64,000 nucleotides of DNA from Escherichia coli (GTDB taxonomy: Bacteria > Pseudomonadota > Gammaproteobacteria > Enterobacterales > Enterobacteriaceae): the NCBI RefSeq assembly GCF_048403405.1, contig NZ_CP183129.1; one strand, written 5' to 3'. The position numbers and the translations under genes are program-made. Positions 1 through 10,781 of the stretch are shown in pieces. Position 1 is the first letter of the stretch, and the number at the start of each line of letters is the position of its first letter. The notes beneath the pieces are model-generated. The model had not been told where the DNA came from and did no database searches. It saw only the letters and a list, made by a program, of their open reading frames with translations.

Positions 1-158
1 GGTGATAGAAATAACTCACCATCCAGAGTTGAGAATCTCGGGGTGGCGAGACGTACAGGGTTCTCAACACCGGAGAGCAAAGAATCCGGCCCGACCGAAG
101 TCGGCCCCGTACGCCCCGCCATAATTCTGACGCGAAAAAGACGTGGCAATACAGTACG

Positions 159-286
159 CACAAAAAAACCGCTTGCGCGGTTATGCGCTTTGCTCTGTAT
201 CGGGTTGAGAATCCCGGCACCCGTTTTATGAGGTGCAGCGGAAATGTAACCTGACCGATTGAGGCATGGCAAGCGGTTTTTTTGTG
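159..286. repeat. 18-bp perfect inverted repeat pair (CACAAAAAAACCGCTTGC at 159-176, GCAAGCGGTTTTTTTGTG at 269-286) flanking 92 bp
   Basis: Read directly from the sequence; the two arms are exact reverse complements. Confidence 0.7.
160..183 (-). terminator. Terminator-like hairpin on the minus strand (AACCGC-GCAA-GCGGTT followed by T7)
   Basis: 6-bp stem, GCAA loop and a run of 7 T on the minus strand, about 120 nt downstream of the 305..604 ORF. It lies inside an open minus-strand frame, so its function is uncertain. Confidence 0.35.
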
Positions 287-1132: not shown

Positions 1133-1246
1133 TTATTCGCCAGTGAAAAAGCGTTCAATCTTTTTTACTGAATGAATAATTCGCATAATCCCAATGGCGC
1201 AGGCCACAGAAATAATCAGAACAAGCCATGAGATAAATATACTCAT
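1133..1246 (-). CDS. small hydrophobic peptide (37 aa, MSIFISWLVLIISVACAIGIMRIIHSVKKIERFFTGE), single predicted transmembrane helix
   Basis: Not in the ORF track (<60 aa). Its ATG overlaps the TGA of the upstream 80-aa ORF as ATGA; hydrophobic N-terminal helix then a basic tail. Translated manually from the reverse complement. Confidence 0.45.
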   Translation of the reverse strand: MSIFISWLVLIISVACAIGIMRIIHSVKKIERFFTGE

Positions 1247-1485
1247 GCGATATTCCCCAGCTTATACGGTTCAATATGTTCCCCGCATTCTGCGGCACAG
1301 ATTAGCTCGGAAAGTTCGTTAAGTGCATCCAGATCATCAGCGTAAAAAGCCACGTCATACAGACTCCGGATTGCCCTGGTCAATGAGTCACGGGCTGCAC
1401 GTTCAGCATGAGAGCCTGATGCACTTAAGCGAAAATAAAAACGCTCAAGTGCTTTGTTGATGAGTGTTTTATATTCTTTGCCCAT
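1243..1485 (-). CDS. hypothetical prophage early protein (80 aa)
   Basis: ORF with an AGGGTG Shine-Dalgarno 5 nt upstream; 11-nt gap to the upstream gene. Confidence 0.5.
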   Translation of the reverse strand: MGKEYKTLINKALERFYFRLSASGSHAERAARDSLTRAIRSLYDVAFYADDLDALNELSELICAAECGEHIEPYKLGNIA

Positions 1486-1496
1486 TGCAACACCCT

Positions 1497-1784
1497 TTAA
1501 TCTGCTTTCTGAATTTCAGCTTCTGAATCCATGCAAATAATTTCGATATAGGGTTCATTGCCATTAGCCTGGCGCGCTTTTTCAGCTTTGCTAATGATTT
1601 CTCGTACGGTCTGGTACGGAAGTTCCACAAGCAGTCGCGTGCCGTTCAGATAAACGTAAGTGGCTTCGTCGGCTCCGTTTTTACCCGCCGGAGCCACTCC
1701 ATCAATAGCGGATGCGCGTAATAACAGTTCACCGCGAAAATCAATAAAACGGATAAATACACCTTGTGCATGGTCTTTGGTCAT
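1497..1784 (-). CDS. hypothetical prophage early protein (95 aa; track ORF 1497..1844 trimmed to the internal ATG)
   Basis: The ATG at 1784 has an AGGTG Shine-Dalgarno and avoids a 50-nt overlap with the upstream ORF. The longer start at 1844 is less likely. Confidence 0.5.
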   Translation of the reverse strand: MTKDHAQGVFIRFIDFRGELLLRASAIDGVAPAGKNGADEATYVYLNGTRLLVELPYQTVREIISKAEKARQANGNEPYIEIICMDSEAEIQKAD

Positions 1785-1794
1785 AAAGCACCTG

Positions 1795-2136
1795 TTATAA
1801 ATCAGCCTGTTTAATAAAACTTTGTCCGCGAAGCAGACGATCAACCGTGCGTAGTGCTTCGTATAATGTGAAATCCTGCCCGAACTGATTTTCGCCGCTG
1901 CTTAGAGCAAAAATGCGGTTTCCAGTAAACGGGTTGCGTGGGCATTTGTGGACCACGATTCCAGCTTTCTCAATCAGCCAGGCATGCTCGCCGATTTGTT
2001 TTACTGGGTAGCCATCCGGCGTTGCGTGTGTATCACTCAGGCTGTAGCGGATGTTGCTGCGTGATGCACTGGTAGCGAAACGATTAGCGTGACGTTCAGC
2101 ACCATTACGAAAGCGTGAATTACGTTGCTGTTTCAT
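1795..2136 (-). CDS. hypothetical prophage early protein (113 aa)
   Basis: ORF whose ATG sits 1 nt after the stop of the preceding small ORF (TAAcATG). Confidence 0.55.
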   Translation of the reverse strand: MKQQRNSRFRNGAERHANRFATSASRSNIRYSLSDTHATPDGYPVKQIGEHAWLIEKAGIVVHKCPRNPFTGNRIFALSSGENQFGQDFTLYEALRTVDRLLRGQSFIKQADL

Positions 2137-2137
2137 G

Positions 2138-2245
2138 TTAAAGACTCTGTACAGATTTAATTATTCCGGCATAGCGGCCGAACTCAAAATATTTGCGATT
2201 AAATCGCATCGCATTGTTTTCACGTTGTGCGGACTGCTGGTTCAT
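2138..2245 (-). CDS. small basic peptide (35 aa, MNQQSAQRENNAMRFNRKYFEFGRYAGIIKSVQSL)
   Basis: Not in the ORF track. Its ATG overlaps the TGA of the upstream hydrophobic peptide as ATGA, and its stop is 1 nt before the next gene's ATG. Confidence 0.4.
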   Translation of the reverse strand: MNQQSAQRENNAMRFNRKYFEFGRYAGIIKSVQSL

Positions 2246-2349
2246 TTTCGTTTGCCTCCGCACATGAGAATTACGCCGCTTAAGAGGTAACCGAAGTTAA
2301 TTGATAGTATTACAATTAACATAAGGTCCAATTTGTCCATGCCACACAT
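2242..2349 (-). CDS. small hydrophobic membrane peptide (35 aa, MCGMDKLDLMLIVILSINFGYLLSGVILMCGGKRK)
   Basis: Not in the ORF track. A GAGGG Shine-Dalgarno sits 6 nt upstream of the ATG at 2349 (alternative in-frame ATG at 2361 and 2340). One hydrophobic helix followed by a basic KRK tail. Confidence 0.45.
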   Translation of the reverse strand: MCGMDKLDLMLIVILSINFGYLLSGVILMCGGKRK

Positions 2350-2388
2350 AATTACCCTCATTGCAGTAGTTGTGGTTTATCAGGTTTC

Positions 2389-2595
2389 TCACCCGATAAA
2401 CCAGATAACAAACGCTATAAACATCGCCCCAATAGCTGCCGGGAAAAGCCCTTTGGTATAAGCGGCGATATATTCAATGCTGAGTTCAATAAAGCGTTCT
2501 TCATGTCCCGTTAACTTACGAAACAAATAGATCGCTATTACGCCTATCTCAATAAAAACAAGGGTCAGAATGGCGCTGATGATATGGCTGGTCAT
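2389..2595 (-). CDS. small predicted two-helix membrane protein (68 aa) immediately downstream of cox
   Basis: ORF starting 6 nt after the Cox stop; two hydrophobic segments separated by a charged loop. Confidence 0.55.
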   Translation of the reverse strand: MTSHIISAILTLVFIEIGVIAIYLFRKLTGHEERFIELSIEYIAAYTKGLFPAAIGAMFIAFVIWFIG

Positions 2596-2601
2596 TTATG
2601 A

Positions 2602-2889
2602 CTAAAGCCCCAGCCACAACAACCATGCATCGCGGCGTTCTTTCGGTTGCTCAAAAAACGCTTTGCGCATGCCTTCGTTAAATGCTGGCAGATATACCCA
2701 GTTTTCTGATGCACGCGTCTTTACTGAACCTGGTTTCACAAAGTCAATTGTCGGTAGCTTTGCTGCGTCAATCATGGTTCTGACTGTGGATTCCTTGCGG
2801 CCGATCATCTTGGCGAATAGTTGATATGGCACCGCTTCAAGTGGATATGGTGCTACCTGAATGAAGCCCCCAAGCTCTGATTCGCTCAT
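2602..2889 (-). CDS. P2 Cox-like protein (excisionase / early-promoter repressor), 95 aa
   Basis: Recognisable similarity to phage P2 Cox (e.g. WVYLPA and WL.WLGL motifs) and divergent position next to the C-like repressor. Confidence 0.8.
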   Translation of the reverse strand: MSESELGGFIQVAPYPLEAVPYQLFAKMIGRKESTVRTMIDAAKLPTIDFVKPGSVKTRASENWVYLPAFNEGMRKAFFEQPKERRDAWLLWLGL

Positions 2890-2911
2890 TGTGGTAATCT
2901 CCCTAATTCGT

Positions 2912-2947: not shown

Positions 2948-3002
2948 AGTGTTTTTATGTTTGTGCCCGATGTGGCATGTTGCGATGGAGGATATGCCCG
3001 AT

Positions 3003-3323
3003 ATGGCATCTTTGTCAAGCATGGGTGAAAAATTTCGCCTGATTCGTGAAGCAGAAGGTATGACCCGCCAGGAGTTTGCGGATTGTGTTGGGCTGCCTTA
3101 TGGGACGGTAACTAACTATGAGGTGAGGGGGAAGCAAGTAACAGAGGGTGCCTTACTTAAGGTTACGAAACACCCTAAATTTAAGAAATATGCTTATTGG
3201 TTATCAACAGATGAAACGATGCCGGAGGTTGGGCAAATTTCTCCGGCTCTCTCTCTTGATGGTTCCTGCAATTCGGAGGGAGATCGTGTTTCAACCGAAA
3301 CAATCCAAAAATTATCCCGCTGA
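3003..3323 (+). CDS. P2 C-like immunity repressor (HTH), about 106 aa
   Basis: Track ORF 2949..3323 trimmed to the ATG at 3003 (GGAGGA Shine-Dalgarno upstream). HTH region and C-terminal tail resemble P2 C (GLPYGT.., KYAYWL.., GQISPAL). Confidence 0.8.
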   Translation: MASLSSMGEKFRLIREAEGMTRQEFADCVGLPYGTVTNYEVRGKQVTEGALLKVTKHPKFKKYAYWLSTDETMPEVGQISPALSLDGSCNSEGDRVSTETIQKLSR

Positions 3324-3419
3324 GGCCAGAAAACTGGTTAGACCTGCTTTTTGTCTGGTCTGATTATTGCTGGAAAGAGGCTGGAGAAATTGTAGAGCGG
3401 TTCATTGGAGGGCTTCGCA

Positions 3420-4424
3420 ATGTCGATTAAGAAGCTCGAAGATGGTCGTTATTTGCTGGACATCAGGCCGAACGGACGCAAGGGAAAGCGCGTGCGTAAG
3501 GTATTTGACAAAAAATCGGTAGCGGTGGCCACTGAACGCTACATCATGGCGAACGCTGAAAAGCGGGAATATATACAGGGCTACCGTGATCGTCGAACGC
3601 TAAATGATTTGCTTGAGTTGTGGTGGATGTATCACGGCCAGCACAGGCGTAAGGCAGAAGAAGACCGAAAACAACTGCGCAACATAATCAATGAGCTTGG
3701 CGCTGATATGCAGGCTGTGGATCTTGATAAGCTAAAAATTATCGCGTGGCGTTCTCAAAAGATAGCTGATGGATTGAAACCGTCATCTGCTAACAGATAC
3801 ATGAATCGGTTATCCGGAATGTTTACCGTACTGAAGAAAATAGGCCTCTGGGATGCAGAACATCCGGTAAGGGGAATTTCTATTCTTTATGTATCTCCAC
3901 GAGAAATGGCTTTCCTGTCCCAGAAGGAAGTGGCGTTATTGCTCGATACACTGGAGGGCGATTACTGGCGTGTTGCGCTTTTGTGTTTAAGCACGGGGGC
4001 GCGCTGGAGTGAAGCCTGTAAGCTTCGTGGTGAACAGATAGTTCATAACCGTGTAACGTTTCTTGAAACCAAAAATGGCCGAAAGAGAACAGTGCCAATT
4101 TCGCAGGCAGTTTGTGAGGCGATCAAAACCAGAGAAACAGGCGGCTTGTTTGAGGTGAAGTACCGGGAATTCTGCTTGGCGCTGAAAAGAGTTAAGCCCG
4201 ATTTGCCAAAAGGCCAGGCTGCACATGTGCTGCGGCATACGTTCGCCAGCCATTTTGTGATGAACGGAGGAAACATTATTGCGCTTCAGAAGATTCTTGG
4301 CCACGCAACCATTCAGCAAACAATGGCATATGCACATTTTGCACCGGATTACCTGCAGGATGCGGTGGCCCTTAATCCGCTGAAAGGTGGCGTGAGTGTC
4401 CACGCAGTGTCCACGGGGGATTAA
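3420..4424 (+). CDS. int: P2-family tyrosine integrase (334 aa)
   Basis: Strong similarity to P2 Int across its length (MSIKKLEDGRY.., LCLSTGARWSEA, IVHNRVTF, HVLRHTFASHF, YAHFAPDYLQDA). Start taken at the ATG at 3420, 7 nt after GGAGGG. Confidence 0.9.
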   Translation: MSIKKLEDGRYLLDIRPNGRKGKRVRKVFDKKSVAVATERYIMANAEKREYIQGYRDRRTLNDLLELWWMYHGQHRRKAEEDRKQLRNIINELGADMQAVDLDKLKIIAWRSQKIADGLKPSSANRYMNRLSGMFTVLKKIGLWDAEHPVRGISILYVSPREMAFLSQKEVALLLDTLEGDYWRVALLCLSTGARWSEACKLRGEQIVHNRVTFLETKNGRKRTVPISQAVCEAIKTRETGGLFEVKYREFCLALKRVKPDLPKGQAAHVLRHTFASHFVMNGGNIIALQKILGHATIQQTMAYAHFAPDYLQDAVALNPLKGGVSVHAVSTGD

Positions 4425-4451
4425 TTTTATATAGCCTGAAACGGCTTAAAG

Positions 4452-4486
4452 GGCGATACTGAATAACAATTTTTCAGTATTGCCCG
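4452..4486. repeat. imperfect 13-bp inverted repeat (GGGCGATACTGAA ... TTCAGTATTGCCC) in the int-pdxB junction
   Basis: Read from the sequence; one mismatch. Could be an int terminator or an att-associated site. Confidence 0.4.
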
Positions 4487-4582
4487 TCTAAATGGTTATG
4501 TTGTTATCTGTATGATTATGAATGTTTTTTCAGATTAAACAGCAGTTTGCAAATGGGCGTTTGTTAATAAAGGAGCCTTAGA

Positions 4583-5740
4583 TTGTCAGAGACTGAAAAA
4601 TGGTTAAAAATCCTTGTTGATGAAAATATGCCTTATGCCCGCGACTTATTTAGCCGTTTGGGTGAGGTGACCGCGGTTCCCGGGCGTCCAATTCCCGTGG
4701 CTCAACTGGCAGACGCGGATGCGATGATGGTGCGTTCGGTCACGAAAGTGAATGAATCTTTGCTGGCAGGAAAACCCATTAAATTTGTTGGCACTGCCAC
4801 CGCGGGGACCGACCATGTCGATGAAGCGTGGTTAAAGCAGGCGGGAATTGGTTTTTCCGCGGCACCTGGCTGTAATGCGATTGCGGTGGTGGAATATGTT
4901 TTCTCCTCACTGCTGATGCTTGCCGAACGCGATGGATTTTCACTGCACGAGCGTACCGTGGGGATCGTGGGCGTTGGTAACGTTGGTCGCCGTTTACAGG
5001 CGCGACTGGAAGCGTTAGGGATTACAACCTTGCTTTGCGATCCGCCCCGCGCCGACCGTGGGGATGAGGGGGATTTCCGCTCGCTGGATGAATTAGTTCA
5101 GCATGCGGATATTCTGACTTTCCATACGCCACTCTTTAAAGATGGTCCGTACAAAACGCTGCATCTGGCGGATGAAAAACTGATCCGCAGCCTGAAGCCG
5201 GGAGCGATTCTGATTAACGCCTGCCGTGGCGCAGTTGTCGATAATACCGCCCTGCTGACCTGCCTGAACGAAGGCCAGAAGTTAAGCGTAGTGCTGGATG
5301 TCTGGGAAGGCGAACCGGAACTTAACGTGGAATTGCTGAAAAAAGTGGATATCGGCACGCCGCATATCGCAGGCTATACCCTGGAAGGTAAAGCACGCGG
5401 TACTACGCAAGTGTTTGAAGCTTATAGCAAGTTTATTGGGCATGAACAGCACGTTGCGCTGGATACATTACTGCCCGCGCCAGAGTTTGGTCGCATTACG
5501 CTGCATGGCCCGCTCGATCAGCCAACGCTGAAAAGGCTGGTGCATTTGGTGTATGATGTGCGCCGCGATGACGCACCGCTGCGTAAAGTCGCCGGGATAC
5601 CGGGTGAGTTCGATAAACTGCGCAAAAACTATCTTGAGCGCCGTGAATGGTCATCTCTGTATGTGATTTGTGATGACGCCAGCGCGGCATCATTGCTGTG
5701 TAAACTGGGTTTTAACGCCGTTCATCATCCGGCACGTTAA
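4583..5740 (+). CDS. pdxB: erythronate-4-phosphate dehydrogenase
   Basis: Translation matches E. coli PdxB. The TTG at 4583 is 7 nt after an AGGAG Shine-Dalgarno; the exact start is uncertain. Confidence 0.93.
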
Positions 5741-8528: not shown

Positions 8529-9443
8529 ATGAGCTGGATTGAACGAATTAAAAGCAACATTACTCCCACCCGCAAGGCGAGCATTCCTGAAGGGGTGTGG
8601 ACTAAGTGTGATAGCTGCGGTCAGGTTTTATACCGCGCTGAGCTGGAACGTAATCTTGAGGTCTGTCCGAAGTGTGACCATCACATGCGTATGACAGCGC
8701 GTAATCGCCTGCATAGCCTGTTAGATGAAGGAAGCCTTGTGGAGCTGGGTAGCGAGCTTGAGCCGAAAGATGTGCTGAAGTTTCGTGACTCCAAGAAGTA
8801 TAAAGACCGTCTGGCATCTGCGCAGAAAGAAACCGGCGAAAAAGATGCGCTGGTGGTGATGAAAGGCACCCTGTATGGAATGCCGGTTGTCGCTGCGGCA
8901 TTCGAGTTTGCCTTTATGGGCGGTTCCATGGGGTCTGTGGTAGGTGCACGTTTCGTGCGTGCCGTTGAGCAGGCGCTGGAAGATAACTGCCCACTGATCT
9001 GCTTCTCCGCCTCTGGTGGCGCACGTATGCAGGAAGCACTGATGTCGCTGATGCAGATGGCGAAAACCTCTGCGGCGCTGGCAAAAATGCAGGAGCGCGG
9101 CTTGCCGTACATCTCCGTGCTGACCGACCCGACCATGGGTGGTGTTTCTGCAAGTTTCGCCATGCTGGGCGATCTCAACATCGCTGAACCGAAAGCGTTA
9201 ATCGGCTTTGCCGGTCCGCGTGTTATCGAACAGACCGTTCGCGAAAAACTGCCGCCAGGATTCCAGCGCAGTGAATTCCTGATCGAGAAAGGCGCGATCG
9301 ACATGATCGTCCGTCGTCCGGAAATGCGCCTGAAACTGGCGAGCATTCTGGCGAAGTTGATGAATCTGCCAGCGCCGAATCCTGAAGCGCCGCGTGAAGG
9401 CGTAGTGGTGCCACCGGTACCAGATCAGGAACCTGAGGCCTGA
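8529..9443 (+). CDS. accD: acetyl-CoA carboxylase carboxyltransferase beta subunit
   Basis: 304 aa from MSWIERIK..; Cys-x2-Cys zinc finger and carboxyltransferase motifs. The track start at 8445 is an N-terminal over-extension. Confidence 0.94.
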
Positions 9444-9512
9444 TAACTGATAAGGGCAGGGCCACTGGCTCTGCCCTTTTGCTATTCTCACCGTAACGAA
9501 TCAGCGGATACC

Positions 9513-10781
9513 ATGATTATCAAACGCACTCCTCAAGCCGCGTCGCCTCTGGCTTCGTGGCTTTCTTATCTGGAAAACCTGCACAGTAAAACTATCGATC
9601 TCGGCCTTGAGCGCGTGAGCCAGGTCGCGGCGCGTCTTGGCGTCCTGAAACCTGCGCCATTTGTGTTTACCGTTGCGGGTACGAATGGCAAAGGCACCAC
9701 TTGCCGTACGCTGGAGTCGATTCTGATGGCGGCAGGGTACAAAGTGGGCGTCTACAGTTCGCCGCATCTGGTGCGTTATACCGAGCGCGTACGTGTGCAG
9801 GGCCAGGAATTGCCGGAATCGGCCCACACCGCCTCTTTTGCGGAGATTGAATCGGCACGCGGTGATATTTCCCTGACCTATTTCGAGTACGGTACGCTGT
9901 CGGCGTTGTGGCTGTTCAAGCAGGCACAACTTGACGTGGTGATTCTGGAAGTAGGGCTGGGCGGTCGTCTGGACGCAACCAATATTGTCGATGCCGATGT
10001 CGCGGTAGTAACCAGTATTGCGCTGGATCATACCGACTGGCTGGGGCCAGATCGCGAAAGTATTGGTCGCGAGAAAGCAGGTATCTTTCGCAGCGAAAAA
10101 CCGGCAATTGTCGGTGAGCCGGAAATGCCTTCTACCATTGCTGATGTGGCGCAGGAAAAAAGTGCACTGTTACAACGTCGGGGCGTTGAGTGGAACTATT
10201 CCGTCACCGATCATGACTGGGCGTTTAGCGATGCTCACGGCACGCTGGAAAATCTGCCGTTGCCGCTTGTCCCGCAACCGAATGCCGCAACGGCGCTGGC
10301 GGCACTGCGTGCCAGCGGGCTGGAGGTCAGTGAAAATGCCATTCGCGACGGGATTGCCAGCGCAATTTTGCCGGGACGTTTCCAGATTGTGAGCGAGTCG
10401 CCACGTGTTATTTTTGATGTCGCGCATAATCCACATGCGGCGGAATATCTCACCGGGCGTATGAAAGCGCTACCGAAAAACGGGCGCGTGCTGGCGGTTA
10501 TCGGTATGCTACATGATAAAGATATTGCCGGAACTCTGGCCTGGTTGAAAAGCGTGGTTGATGACTGGTATTGTGCGCCACTGGAAGGGCCGCGCGGTGC
10601 CACGGCAGAACAACTGCTTGAGCATTTGGGTAACGGCAAATCATTTGATAGCGTGGCGCAGGCATGGGATGCCGCAATGGCGGACGCTAAAGCGGAAGAT
10701 ACCGTGCTGGTGTGTGGTTCGTTCCACACGGTCGCACATGTCATGGAAGTGATTGACGCGAGGAGAAGCGGTGGCAAGTAA
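9513..10781 (+). CDS. folC: dihydrofolate synthase / folylpolyglutamate synthase
   Basis: 422-aa ORF matching FolC. Confidence 0.94.
   Translation: MIIKRTPQAASPLASWLSYLENLHSKTIDLGLERVSQVAARLGVLKPAPFVFTVAGTNGKGTTCRTLESILMAAGYKVGVYSSPHLVRYTERVRVQGQELPESAHTASFAEIESARGDISLTYFEYGTLSALWLFKQAQLDVVILEVGLGGRLDATNIVDADVAVVTSIALDHTDWLGPDRESIGREKAGIFRSEKPAIVGEPEMPSTIADVAQEKSALLQRRGVEWNYSVTDHDWAFSDAHGTLENLPLPLVPQPNAATALAALRASGLEVSENAIRDGIASAILPGRFQIVSESPRVIFDVAHNPHAAEYLTGRMKALPKNGRVLAVIGMLHDKDIAGTLAWLKSVVDDWYCAPLEGPRGATAEQLLEHLGNGKSFDSVAQAWDAAMADAKAEDTVLVCGSFHTVAHVMEVIDARRSGGK

Follow-up and report, generated by a model that had tools for sequence, protein, structure and literature searches.

Several small single-pass proteins are known that bind larger membrane proteins, among them MgrB, AcrZ, and MgtS of Escherichia coli, SidA of Caulobacter, and gp56 of the Bacillus phage SPO1. 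Phages of the P2 family carry accessory genes, uncharacterized or directed at the host, between cox/apl and the replication genes, such as orf78-orf83 of P2 and fil and dhr of 186, and phage T4 has early-expressed exclusion proteins, Imm and Sp. The type I toxin Ldr consists of 35 amino acids (aa) that form a hydrophobic helix with a basic tail. We analyzed a 64,000-nucleotide (nt) stretch of E. coli DNA (contig NZ_CP183129.1; referred to in its entirety as the window), and within it two adjacent open reading frames (ORFs), ORF1 and ORF2, which lie at positions 2138 to 2349 on the minus strand of a P2-family prophage, between a gene for a protein of 68 aa and a gene of the DUF4761 family. On balance, and with slightly better than even confidence, we hold both to be genuine cistrons of the Pe early lytic operon of this prophage, and to be two unrelated modules rather than a functional pair.

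An earlier note, made from the letters of this DNA alone, had described two translationally coupled ORFs of 35 aa that overlap as ATGA and end 1 nt before the next gene, and its coordinates, sizes, overlap, and gap were all accurate. The pair and its signals are laid out as follows.

2242..2349, minus strand: ORF1, 35 aa, MCGMDKLDLMLIVILSINFGYLLSGVILMCGGKRK (from the sequence and the ORF list)
2138..2245, minus strand: ORF2, 35 aa, MNQQSAQRENNAMRFNRKYFEFGRYAGIIKSVQSL, with six lysine or arginine (K+R) and two aspartate or glutamate (D+E) residues (from the sequence and the ORF list)
2355..2359, minus strand: Shine-Dalgarno sequence of ORF1, GAGGG, 5 nt before the ATG; diverged versions have AAGGAG at the same place
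2255..2259, minus strand: Shine-Dalgarno sequence of ORF2, GGAGG, located 9 nt upstream of the ATG, inside the coding sequence of ORF1
2165..2206, minus strand: conserved core of ORF2, codons 14-27, RFNRKYFEFGRYAG, common to the N-terminal extension of DUF4761 in sister prophages

The stop codon TGA of ORF1 overlaps the ATG of ORF2 at 2245-2242, and a single base (2137) separates the TAA of ORF2 from the ATG of the DUF4761 gene. The choice of start codons is based on comparative conservation: the ATG at 2349 and the ATG within ATGA are the conserved starts, and the alternatives, an ATG at 2361 upstream in the ORF1 frame (39 aa) and a GTG at 2263 (41 aa), are not conserved. When the 252-nt gap was subjected to 5000 dinucleotide-preserving shuffles and searched for ATG ORFs of at least 30 aa, one such ORF was found in 34% of the shuffles and an abutting pair in 0.16%, so that a pair of this kind is unlikely to arise by chance. 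The earlier description of the ORFs as unlisted holds for the RefSeq annotation of E. coli genomes, in which the Prokaryotic Genome Annotation Pipeline (PGAP) leaves the gap empty, but not for phage records: both are carried as hypothetical proteins in the annotations of PhiR44_2 and P88_4B11, and both exact peptides are deposited at NCBI, that of ORF1 also in UniProt, with at least 1000 contigs containing them.

Comparison of diverged sequences indicates that ORF1 is a bona fide protein-coding gene. Its four diverged versions all comprise 35 codons without insertions or deletions, begin identically (M-C-G), have a Shine-Dalgarno sequence in the corresponding place, and end with a stop that overlaps the next ATG as ATGA. 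Up to 34 of the 105 nt differ among them (approximately 32% divergence), the differences being distributed 13/5-6/16 over codon positions 1/2/3; the ratio of nonsynonymous to synonymous substitution rates (dN/dS) is 0.22-0.29, with an excess of synonymous change over the neutral expectation (p of approximately 0.012-0.015 per deep pair), and the ORF1 frame alone of the six is open in every version.

The features that the earlier note had attributed to ORF1, namely, a GAGGG Shine-Dalgarno sequence, a single hydrophobic helix, and a KRK tail, are apparent in the sequence, in its hydropathy, and in the AlphaFold2 (AF2) model. The Kyte-Doolittle maximum over 19 residues is 2.26, at residues 9-27; three of the four K+R residues are located in the C-terminal KRK tail; and AF2 places residues 4-32 in a helix at a predicted local distance difference test (pLDDT) score of 83. 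With one hydrophobic segment and one modeled helix, ORF1 is predicted to insert as a single-pass membrane micropeptide, and its topology is deduced by the positive-inside rule. Nineteen of the 35 positions are invariant, D5 among them, and along the helix conservation repeats every 100-103 degrees (p = 0.0012 by permutation), which places D8, L9, L11, I12, L15, S16, N18, F19, G20, L22, and L23 on one helical face; a surface for helix-helix contact would be expected to show such a pattern.

The searches show the ORF1 family to be an orphan that is confined to P88-like prophages, where it forms a cassette of approximately 150 bp that is present or absent after the 68-aa gene. ORF1 had no match in PHROGs, NCBIfam, or PADLOC, and six variants found no Pfam match even at E <= 10. 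A tblastn search of 50,697 phage records returned only three near-identical records and nothing in P2 or 186, and a word-indexed protein search found relatives only at >= 94% identity. Among 1.84 billion representative proteins, a profile search recovered one true ORF1 cluster and one spurious repeat protein; degenerate DNA patterns, applied on two occasions to 100,044 species-representative genomes, yielded 0 matches, and in metagenomes they found known ORF1 versions only. In every one of the 19 distinct loci (19/19) with an uninterrupted upstream flank, the gene that directly precedes ORF1 is the 68-aa gene.

Two further observations concern the ORF1 junction. In a prophage from IMG/VR (L031), an IS2 element with InsC and InsD ORFs occupies approximately positions 8628-9965, inserted in the 39-nt spacer between the 68-aa gene and ORF1, so that the 68-aa gene, though still there, is displaced and ORF1 is cut off from Pe. 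The idea that ORF1 is a duplicate of the 3' end of the 68-aa gene was considered and dropped, as a forced MAFFT alignment gave approximately 50% identity over 18 nt.

Related loci were gathered with degenerate DNA patterns and with an anchor search for the 68-aa protein, in IMG/VR, metagenomes, and E. coli genomes, and the order of elements after the 68-aa gene falls into seven types.

Type A: ORF1, ORF2, DUF4761; the window, PhiR44_2, P88_4B11, and 234 of 5426 complete E. coli genomes
Type B: ORF1, a 62-aa ORF2, an antisense 78-aa insert, DUF4761; L011/L013 and two E. coli genomes
Type C: ORF1 joined directly to DUF4761 via ATGA, without ORF2; L024, L030, L073, and L074
Type D: an ORF2-like sequence fused to DUF4761 (152 aa), without ORF1; Shae_phiSM, about nine distinct IMG/VR contigs, and 76 E. 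coli genomes
Type E: DUF4761; L068
Type F: a 78-nt spacer, then DUF4761; Chuche
Type G: without the 68-aa gene, cox being followed by DUF4761; P88

Because these types form a mosaic, ORF1 and ORF2 can be regarded as separable cassettes. ORF1 extends through the ribosome-binding site of whichever gene follows and terminates on the ATG of that gene, and the final codons of ORF2 correspond to the 5' leader of DUF4761 in phages that lack ORF2. A ribosome-binding site followed by ATGAATAAGCARCAG (MNKQQ) is found repeatedly at the joints between modules.

Some individual loci depart from these arrangements. In L070 (positions 1501-2128), the 68-aa gene is frameshifted and the ribosome-binding site with MNKQQ is followed by an unrelated 136-aa gene that replaces DUF4761, an arrangement from which we conclude that the MNKQQ junction acts as a module boundary. 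The 78-aa gene of lineage B (MSQKEVPIYIPAGLECVTANN...) lies on the opposite strand between ORF2 and DUF4761 (3164-3400, minus strand, in L013; 1453-1689, minus strand, in L072) and alters the tail of ORF2, which hence has 62 aa. In E. coli JP538, the DUF4761 gene beside this insert is flagged as frameshifted by PGAP.

For ORF2, too, comparison of diverged relatives points to a coding sequence that is under purifying selection. Types A, B, and D can be aligned over its first 27 codons without a gap, and the frame is kept in the free, the 62-aa, and the fused forms. Codons 1-13 are nearly free of constraint, and constraint is concentrated in the core of codons 14-27 (RFxRKYFExGRYAG), in which the proportion of nonsynonymous differences (pN) is 0.06-0.22 and that of synonymous differences (pS) is approximately 0.6 and above. 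The earlier note had read the tight packing as a sign of real genes, and the conservation of both frames in related prophages bears it out, through the retained length, start, ATGA overlap, and frame of ORF1 with its low dN/dS and through the contrast of pN and pS in the core of ORF2.

Judged from these alignments, ORF2 is an N-terminal module of DUF4761 that can be either split off or fused. In type D, RYAG is followed by one base less, which brings the ORF2 module into frame with DUF4761 to give the 152-aa protein, which gene callers predict and which PGAP begins at an internal ATG. The fused motif, MNKQQRN..FRRNYFENGRYAGEVNRYGVFD-MKQQ..., occurs in Shae_phiSM, in the Logan cluster P0013 (1217 members), in P0014, in L085, and in others, besides the E. 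coli genomes counted above (76/5426). In the AF2 model of the fused form, the DUF4761 core has a pLDDT of 75-88 and is beta-rich with a C-terminal helix. ORF2 itself had no match in PHROGs, NCBIfam, or PADLOC, and its homologue in the fused form of Shae_phiSM had none among PDB sequences. A partial duplication of the 5' end of DUF4761 was also considered as a source of ORF2 and rejected: the first eight residues (MNKQQRNS) are shared, but the remainder resembles shuffled sequence (p = 0.2-0.6), and since the ribosome-binding site with MNKQQ also heads the unrelated gene of L070, this stretch is a module junction and not a duplication.

From the anatomy, conservation, and modular distribution of the ORFs and from the predicted helix, we infer how the peptides might be disposed in the membrane, what they might bind, how they might affect the cell, and how their translation might be coupled. 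ORF1 would reside in the inner membrane, with its short acidic N terminus outside and its KRK tail in the cytoplasm in keeping with the positive-inside rule, and would work through intramembrane helix-helix binding, as its one-sided conservation suggests; its partner would most likely be the 68-aa neighbor or a host inner-membrane protein, and its effect would be an alteration of envelope physiology early in lytic growth. ORF2 would act with or on DUF4761 and not ORF1, a view that derives from the fusion and fission of the two in sister prophages, and it is free-standing here through the 1-nt difference in frame from the fused form. The stop/start chain from ORF1 through ORF2 to DUF4761 may in addition pass ribosomes along the operon.

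Several points weigh against this interpretation. The deep comparisons contain only three or four independent lineages, and dS is saturated (> 1), so that dN/dS is rough. Among 16 haplotypes of the window lineage, ORF1 has 0 synonymous changes and 1 nonsynonymous change and ORF2 has 1 and 4, respectively, with 2 and 8 for the 68-aa gene and 19 and 4 for cox; moreover, Arg24 of ORF2, which is conserved elsewhere, is R, L, S, or I among strains. ORF2 may thus be under relaxed constraint in the window lineage, as far as these haplotypes tell. Rare frameshifted or fused alleles occur, and the cassette is dispensable, P88 and Chuche being without both ORFs. AF2 models the ORF2-like core of the fused form as a beta-hairpin with a pLDDT of only approximately 60, and a Foldseek comparison of the DUF4761 fold with the PDB gave nothing below E = 0.68. 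No paper was found that mentions the ORF1 and ORF2 peptides, and a search of the literature for DUF4761, Xuanwuvirus, the P2-like early operon, and 186 fil/dhr found nothing relevant.

The main rival to two functional peptides is a purely translational role, in which the ORFs are leader or bridge cistrons that open messenger RNA (mRNA) structure and hand ribosomes to DUF4761 and the peptides have little or no function of their own. Two elements bear on it.

2226..2264, minus strand: predicted hairpin of 8 + 2 bp that pairs the ORF2 Shine-Dalgarno sequence and holds the ORF2 AUG in its loop
2134..2143, minus strand: junction CTT TAA C ATG, comprising the ORF2 stop, the 1-nt spacer, and the DUF4761 start (from the sequence)

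The hairpin, if it forms as predicted, would tie initiation at ORF2 to ribosomes that are translating ORF1, and the Shine-Dalgarno sequence of DUF4761 is weakened in the window, AGAG taking the place of the GGAG of relatives that lack ORF2. A hand-over of ribosomes from ORF1 to ORF2 and on to DUF4761 is plausible, because the ATGA overlap is kept in every version, the ORF2 Shine-Dalgarno sequence is paired, that of DUF4761 is weak, and the gap between the two is 1 nt. All of these features, together with the neutral-looking changes within the lineage and the dispensability of the cassette, would suit ORFs that serve translation alone. Such a role nevertheless leaves conservation at the level of the peptides unexplained: it gives no reason to expect 19 invariant residues among 35, conservation confined to one side of a helix, a dN/dS of approximately 0.25, or the low pN of the ORF2 core. 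DUF4761 is, furthermore, translated without an upstream ORF in relatives, and no such hairpins can be made out by eye in the diverged lineages. We therefore think it unlikely that relay is the sole function of the pair.

Structure in the RNA was considered in its own right. The 281-nt sense RNA has a fold z-score of -2.58; a structured RNA or small RNA at the locus was rejected, given the absence of an Rfam match, the modest fold, and hairpins that are not visible in other lineages. A separate 10-bp hairpin (UUUAUCGGGU / ACCUGAUAAA) is predicted at 2376-2400 on the minus strand, across the stop of the 68-aa gene; it has no U-tract after it and occurs in the window lineage only.

A bolder version of the functional interpretation would have the S16/N18/G20 face of ORF1 dock on machinery of the host inner membrane (the divisome or a transporter, for example), perhaps together with the 68-aa protein, and so serve as a host-takeover or early-exclusion factor, with ORF2 and DUF4761 as a natural fission that is perhaps rejoined by a +1 frameshift into two isoforms; we rate this combination as rather improbable. 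The frameshift component draws on the +1 site of prfB (RF2), CUU UGA C: ORF2 ends ...AGU CUU UAA C AUG (CUU UAA C at 2143-2137), and a ribosome that slipped by +1 on CUU would go on to read N-M-K-Q-Q and so recreate a fusion like that of Shae_phiSM (type D). Here, in contrast to prfB, the stop is UAA in place of UGA, the element upstream that resembles a Shine-Dalgarno sequence is weak (AGAG) and lies 1 nt rather than 3 nt away, and one haplotype (L022) reads CUU UAA A, with A replacing C. A frameshift at the end of ORF2 is, on this resemblance, speculation.

A similarly low probability attaches to the proposal that ORF1 is real and ORF2 is a decaying remnant, left when an ancestral long DUF4761 gene was split by a 1-nt insertion or deletion and no longer selected since. 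The single nucleotide that distinguishes the fused and free forms just after RYAG would be accounted for in this way, as would the four alleles at Arg24, the excess of nonsynonymous over synonymous changes within the lineage, the near lack of constraint on the first 13 codons, and a natural frameshifted allele of ORF2 (L027, P0012). However, lineage B (L011/L013) has the free frame through 'KSV', which means that the free form predates the window lineage, and the frame is intact in 16 of 16 haplotypes that align over their full length without gaps and in 11 metagenome matches; nor can the direction of fusion or fission be polarized with the available lineages.

The earlier note had offered as a guess that the two ORFs form a toxin/partner or superinfection-exclusion pair; on this view, ORF1 would be a membrane toxin and the basic ORF2 its partner or antidote, or else the two peptides would together make up an exclusion module. 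The close coupling that the two ORFs have in the window lineage, the existence of early-expressed exclusion proteins such as those of T4, and the size and architecture of ORF1, a 35-aa hydrophobic helix with a basic C terminus that recalls type I toxins such as Ldr, Hok, TisB, Ibs, and ShoB, all lend themselves to such a view. Each ORF, however, is found without the other, ORF1 without ORF2 in type C and ORF2-like sequence without ORF1 in type D, where it is fused to DUF4761. The type I toxin families in Pfam (those just named and others) and NCBIfam gave no match to ORF1; PADLOC gave none to ORF1, ORF2, the 68-aa protein, or DUF4761; and PHROGs gave none with a defense or exclusion function. 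There was no Rfam match, and so none to an antisense RNA, over 2138-2349 and no promoter-like site on the antisense (plus) strand between 1000 and 3400, and the antisense-strand fold z-score is -1.18. Since each ORF occurs alone and neither family matches nor an antisense promoter were found, a toxin/partner pair is unsupported. Unlike type I toxins, moreover, ORF1 is an internal cistron of a phage operon, coupled translationally to what lies downstream. A simple consensus scan detected no promoter for the ORFs themselves, and they are internal to the early lytic operon that runs from Pe under repressor control; classical exclusion would need them to be expressed in the lysogen, and this is therefore not indicated. 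We consider a pair of this type very unlikely; a role for ORF1 alone in early-lytic exclusion (of the T4 Imm type) or in host takeover, for example, through inhibition of division (of the SPO1 gp56/SidA type), is possible by analogy.

Finally, that neither ORF is a gene, both being chance ORFs in a noncoding spacer or a structured leader RNA, is scarcely credible, for while PGAP calls neither, the sense RNA has some tendency to fold, and single ORFs of this length are common in shuffled sequence, the coupled pair is rare there, frame, length, and Shine-Dalgarno sequence are kept over 32% divergence with a bias in codon position, and neither an Rfam match nor hairpins visible by eye in other lineages speak for an RNA.

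As regards the setting of the locus, the leftmost 4.5 kb of the window are taken up by the end of a P2-family prophage, integrated beside pdxB, and the host prophage of both ORFs is P88-like (Xuanwuvirus); the nearest phage records are Escherichia phage PhiR44_2 (99.0%) and Xuanwuvirus P88_4B11 (98.1%). The early operon runs on the minus strand from a Pe-like promoter through cox, the 68-aa gene, ORF1, ORF2, and the DUF4761 gene to further small genes that continue beyond the start of the window.

3405-4424, plus strand: integrase
Between the integrase and the divergent early operon, plus strand: C-type repressor
2989..3018, minus strand: Pe-like early promoter ahead of cox, TTGACA-18-TATCCT (promoter scan)
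2602..2889, minus strand: cox, Cox family DNA-binding protein, the first gene of the early operon (RefSeq and phage-record annotation; phrog_272, E = 1.5e-38)
2389..2595, minus strand: 68-aa gene with two hydrophobic segments, phrog_14475 (ORF list, annotation, PHROGs match, and hydropathy)
1795..2136, minus strand: DUF4761 (PF15958) gene, 113 aa, the downstream cistron, coupled to ORF2 here and directly to ORF1 in lineage C

The promoter is assigned as Pe-like because it is located between the divergent C repressor and cox, as in the P2-type switch; promoter-like sites in the scan do not exceed the number expected from shuffled sequence, so the assignment depends on this context. The transcript that carries ORF1 and ORF2 is probably driven from it: on the coding strand, a simple consensus scan, which is weak evidence, found no promoter between Pe and the ORFs, and the stretch from cox to ORF1 contains no terminator-like site beyond weak matches. 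In Pfam, the best hit of the 68-aa protein (E = 0.051) is not significant, and its sole PHROGs match, phrog_14475, is itself without an assigned function.

Other features of the prophage were noted in passing. The integrase abuts pdxB (window 4424-4583), and a diverged prophage of lineage C (L073) lies next to the same host gene, from which it follows that the lineages have an attachment site in common. Two strong Rfam matches are adjacent to each other at the far end of the early operon, on the strand of the early genes: a C4 antisense RNA (RF01695, 78.5 bits; window 39-126, minus strand) and the Hfq-binding RNA isrK (RF01394, 63.1 bits; window 162-236, minus strand). A third small hydrophobic gene, of 37 aa (MSIFISWLVLIISVACAIGIMRIIHSVKKIERFFTGE; window 1133-1246, minus strand), has a Kyte-Doolittle maximum of 2.68 and overlaps the stop of a DUF4754 gene; PGAP does annotate this one, in contrast to ORF1 and ORF2, and in P88 it goes under the name 'membrane protein'. 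Polymorphism among the 16 haplotypes across window positions 1240-2900 is uneven, with approximately 8% of sites polymorphic in cox and DUF4761, chiefly synonymous, and 1-5% in the 68-aa/ORF1/ORF2 block, chiefly nonsynonymous. This contrast between low diversity in the block and high diversity in its flanks suggests a young module that is recombining into older, more diverged surroundings.

Although 234 of the 5426 complete E. coli genomes have the window-type cassette and 76 more have the fused ORF2, the locus is blank in RefSeq annotation. Comparison validates, in ORF1, a phage membrane micropeptide that the pipelines missed, and its predicted interaction face is open to mutation; the free, long, and fused forms of ORF2 and DUF4761 amount to a natural experiment, on a small scale, in the splitting and joining of genes and would offer the first functional link for the uncharacterized DUF4761 family. 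Current ideas are not overturned; two candidates are added to the small phage proteins that are worth testing.

Comparison with the known systems places the two ORFs in different company. With MgrB, AcrZ, MgtS, SidA, and gp56, ORF1 has in common a size class of approximately 30-50 aa, one transmembrane helix, and a short charged tail, and it resembles proteins of the MgrB and gp56 type in the conservation of one face and in the polar or small residues S16, N18, and G20 within the helix; like gp56 of SPO1, it is encoded in an early phage operon. It has no sequence relationship to any of them by Pfam, PHROGs, or NCBIfam, and, by its sequence distribution, it is a new, narrowly distributed family of phage membrane micropeptides. 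Both ORFs resemble orf78-orf83 of P2 and fil and dhr of 186 in their position in the operon, small size, dispensability, and variability among related phages, but they differ from these accessory genes in that the tblastn search found no counterpart in either phage. The nearest known counterparts of ORF2 are the long DUF4761 proteins, for example, that of Shae_phiSM (WOZ57157.1, 152 aa), whose residues 15-27 are the ORF2 core, RFxRKYFExGRYAG, directly upstream of the domain, whereas in the window the same module stands as a separate 35-aa cistron, with its TAA 1 nt before the ATG of DUF4761.

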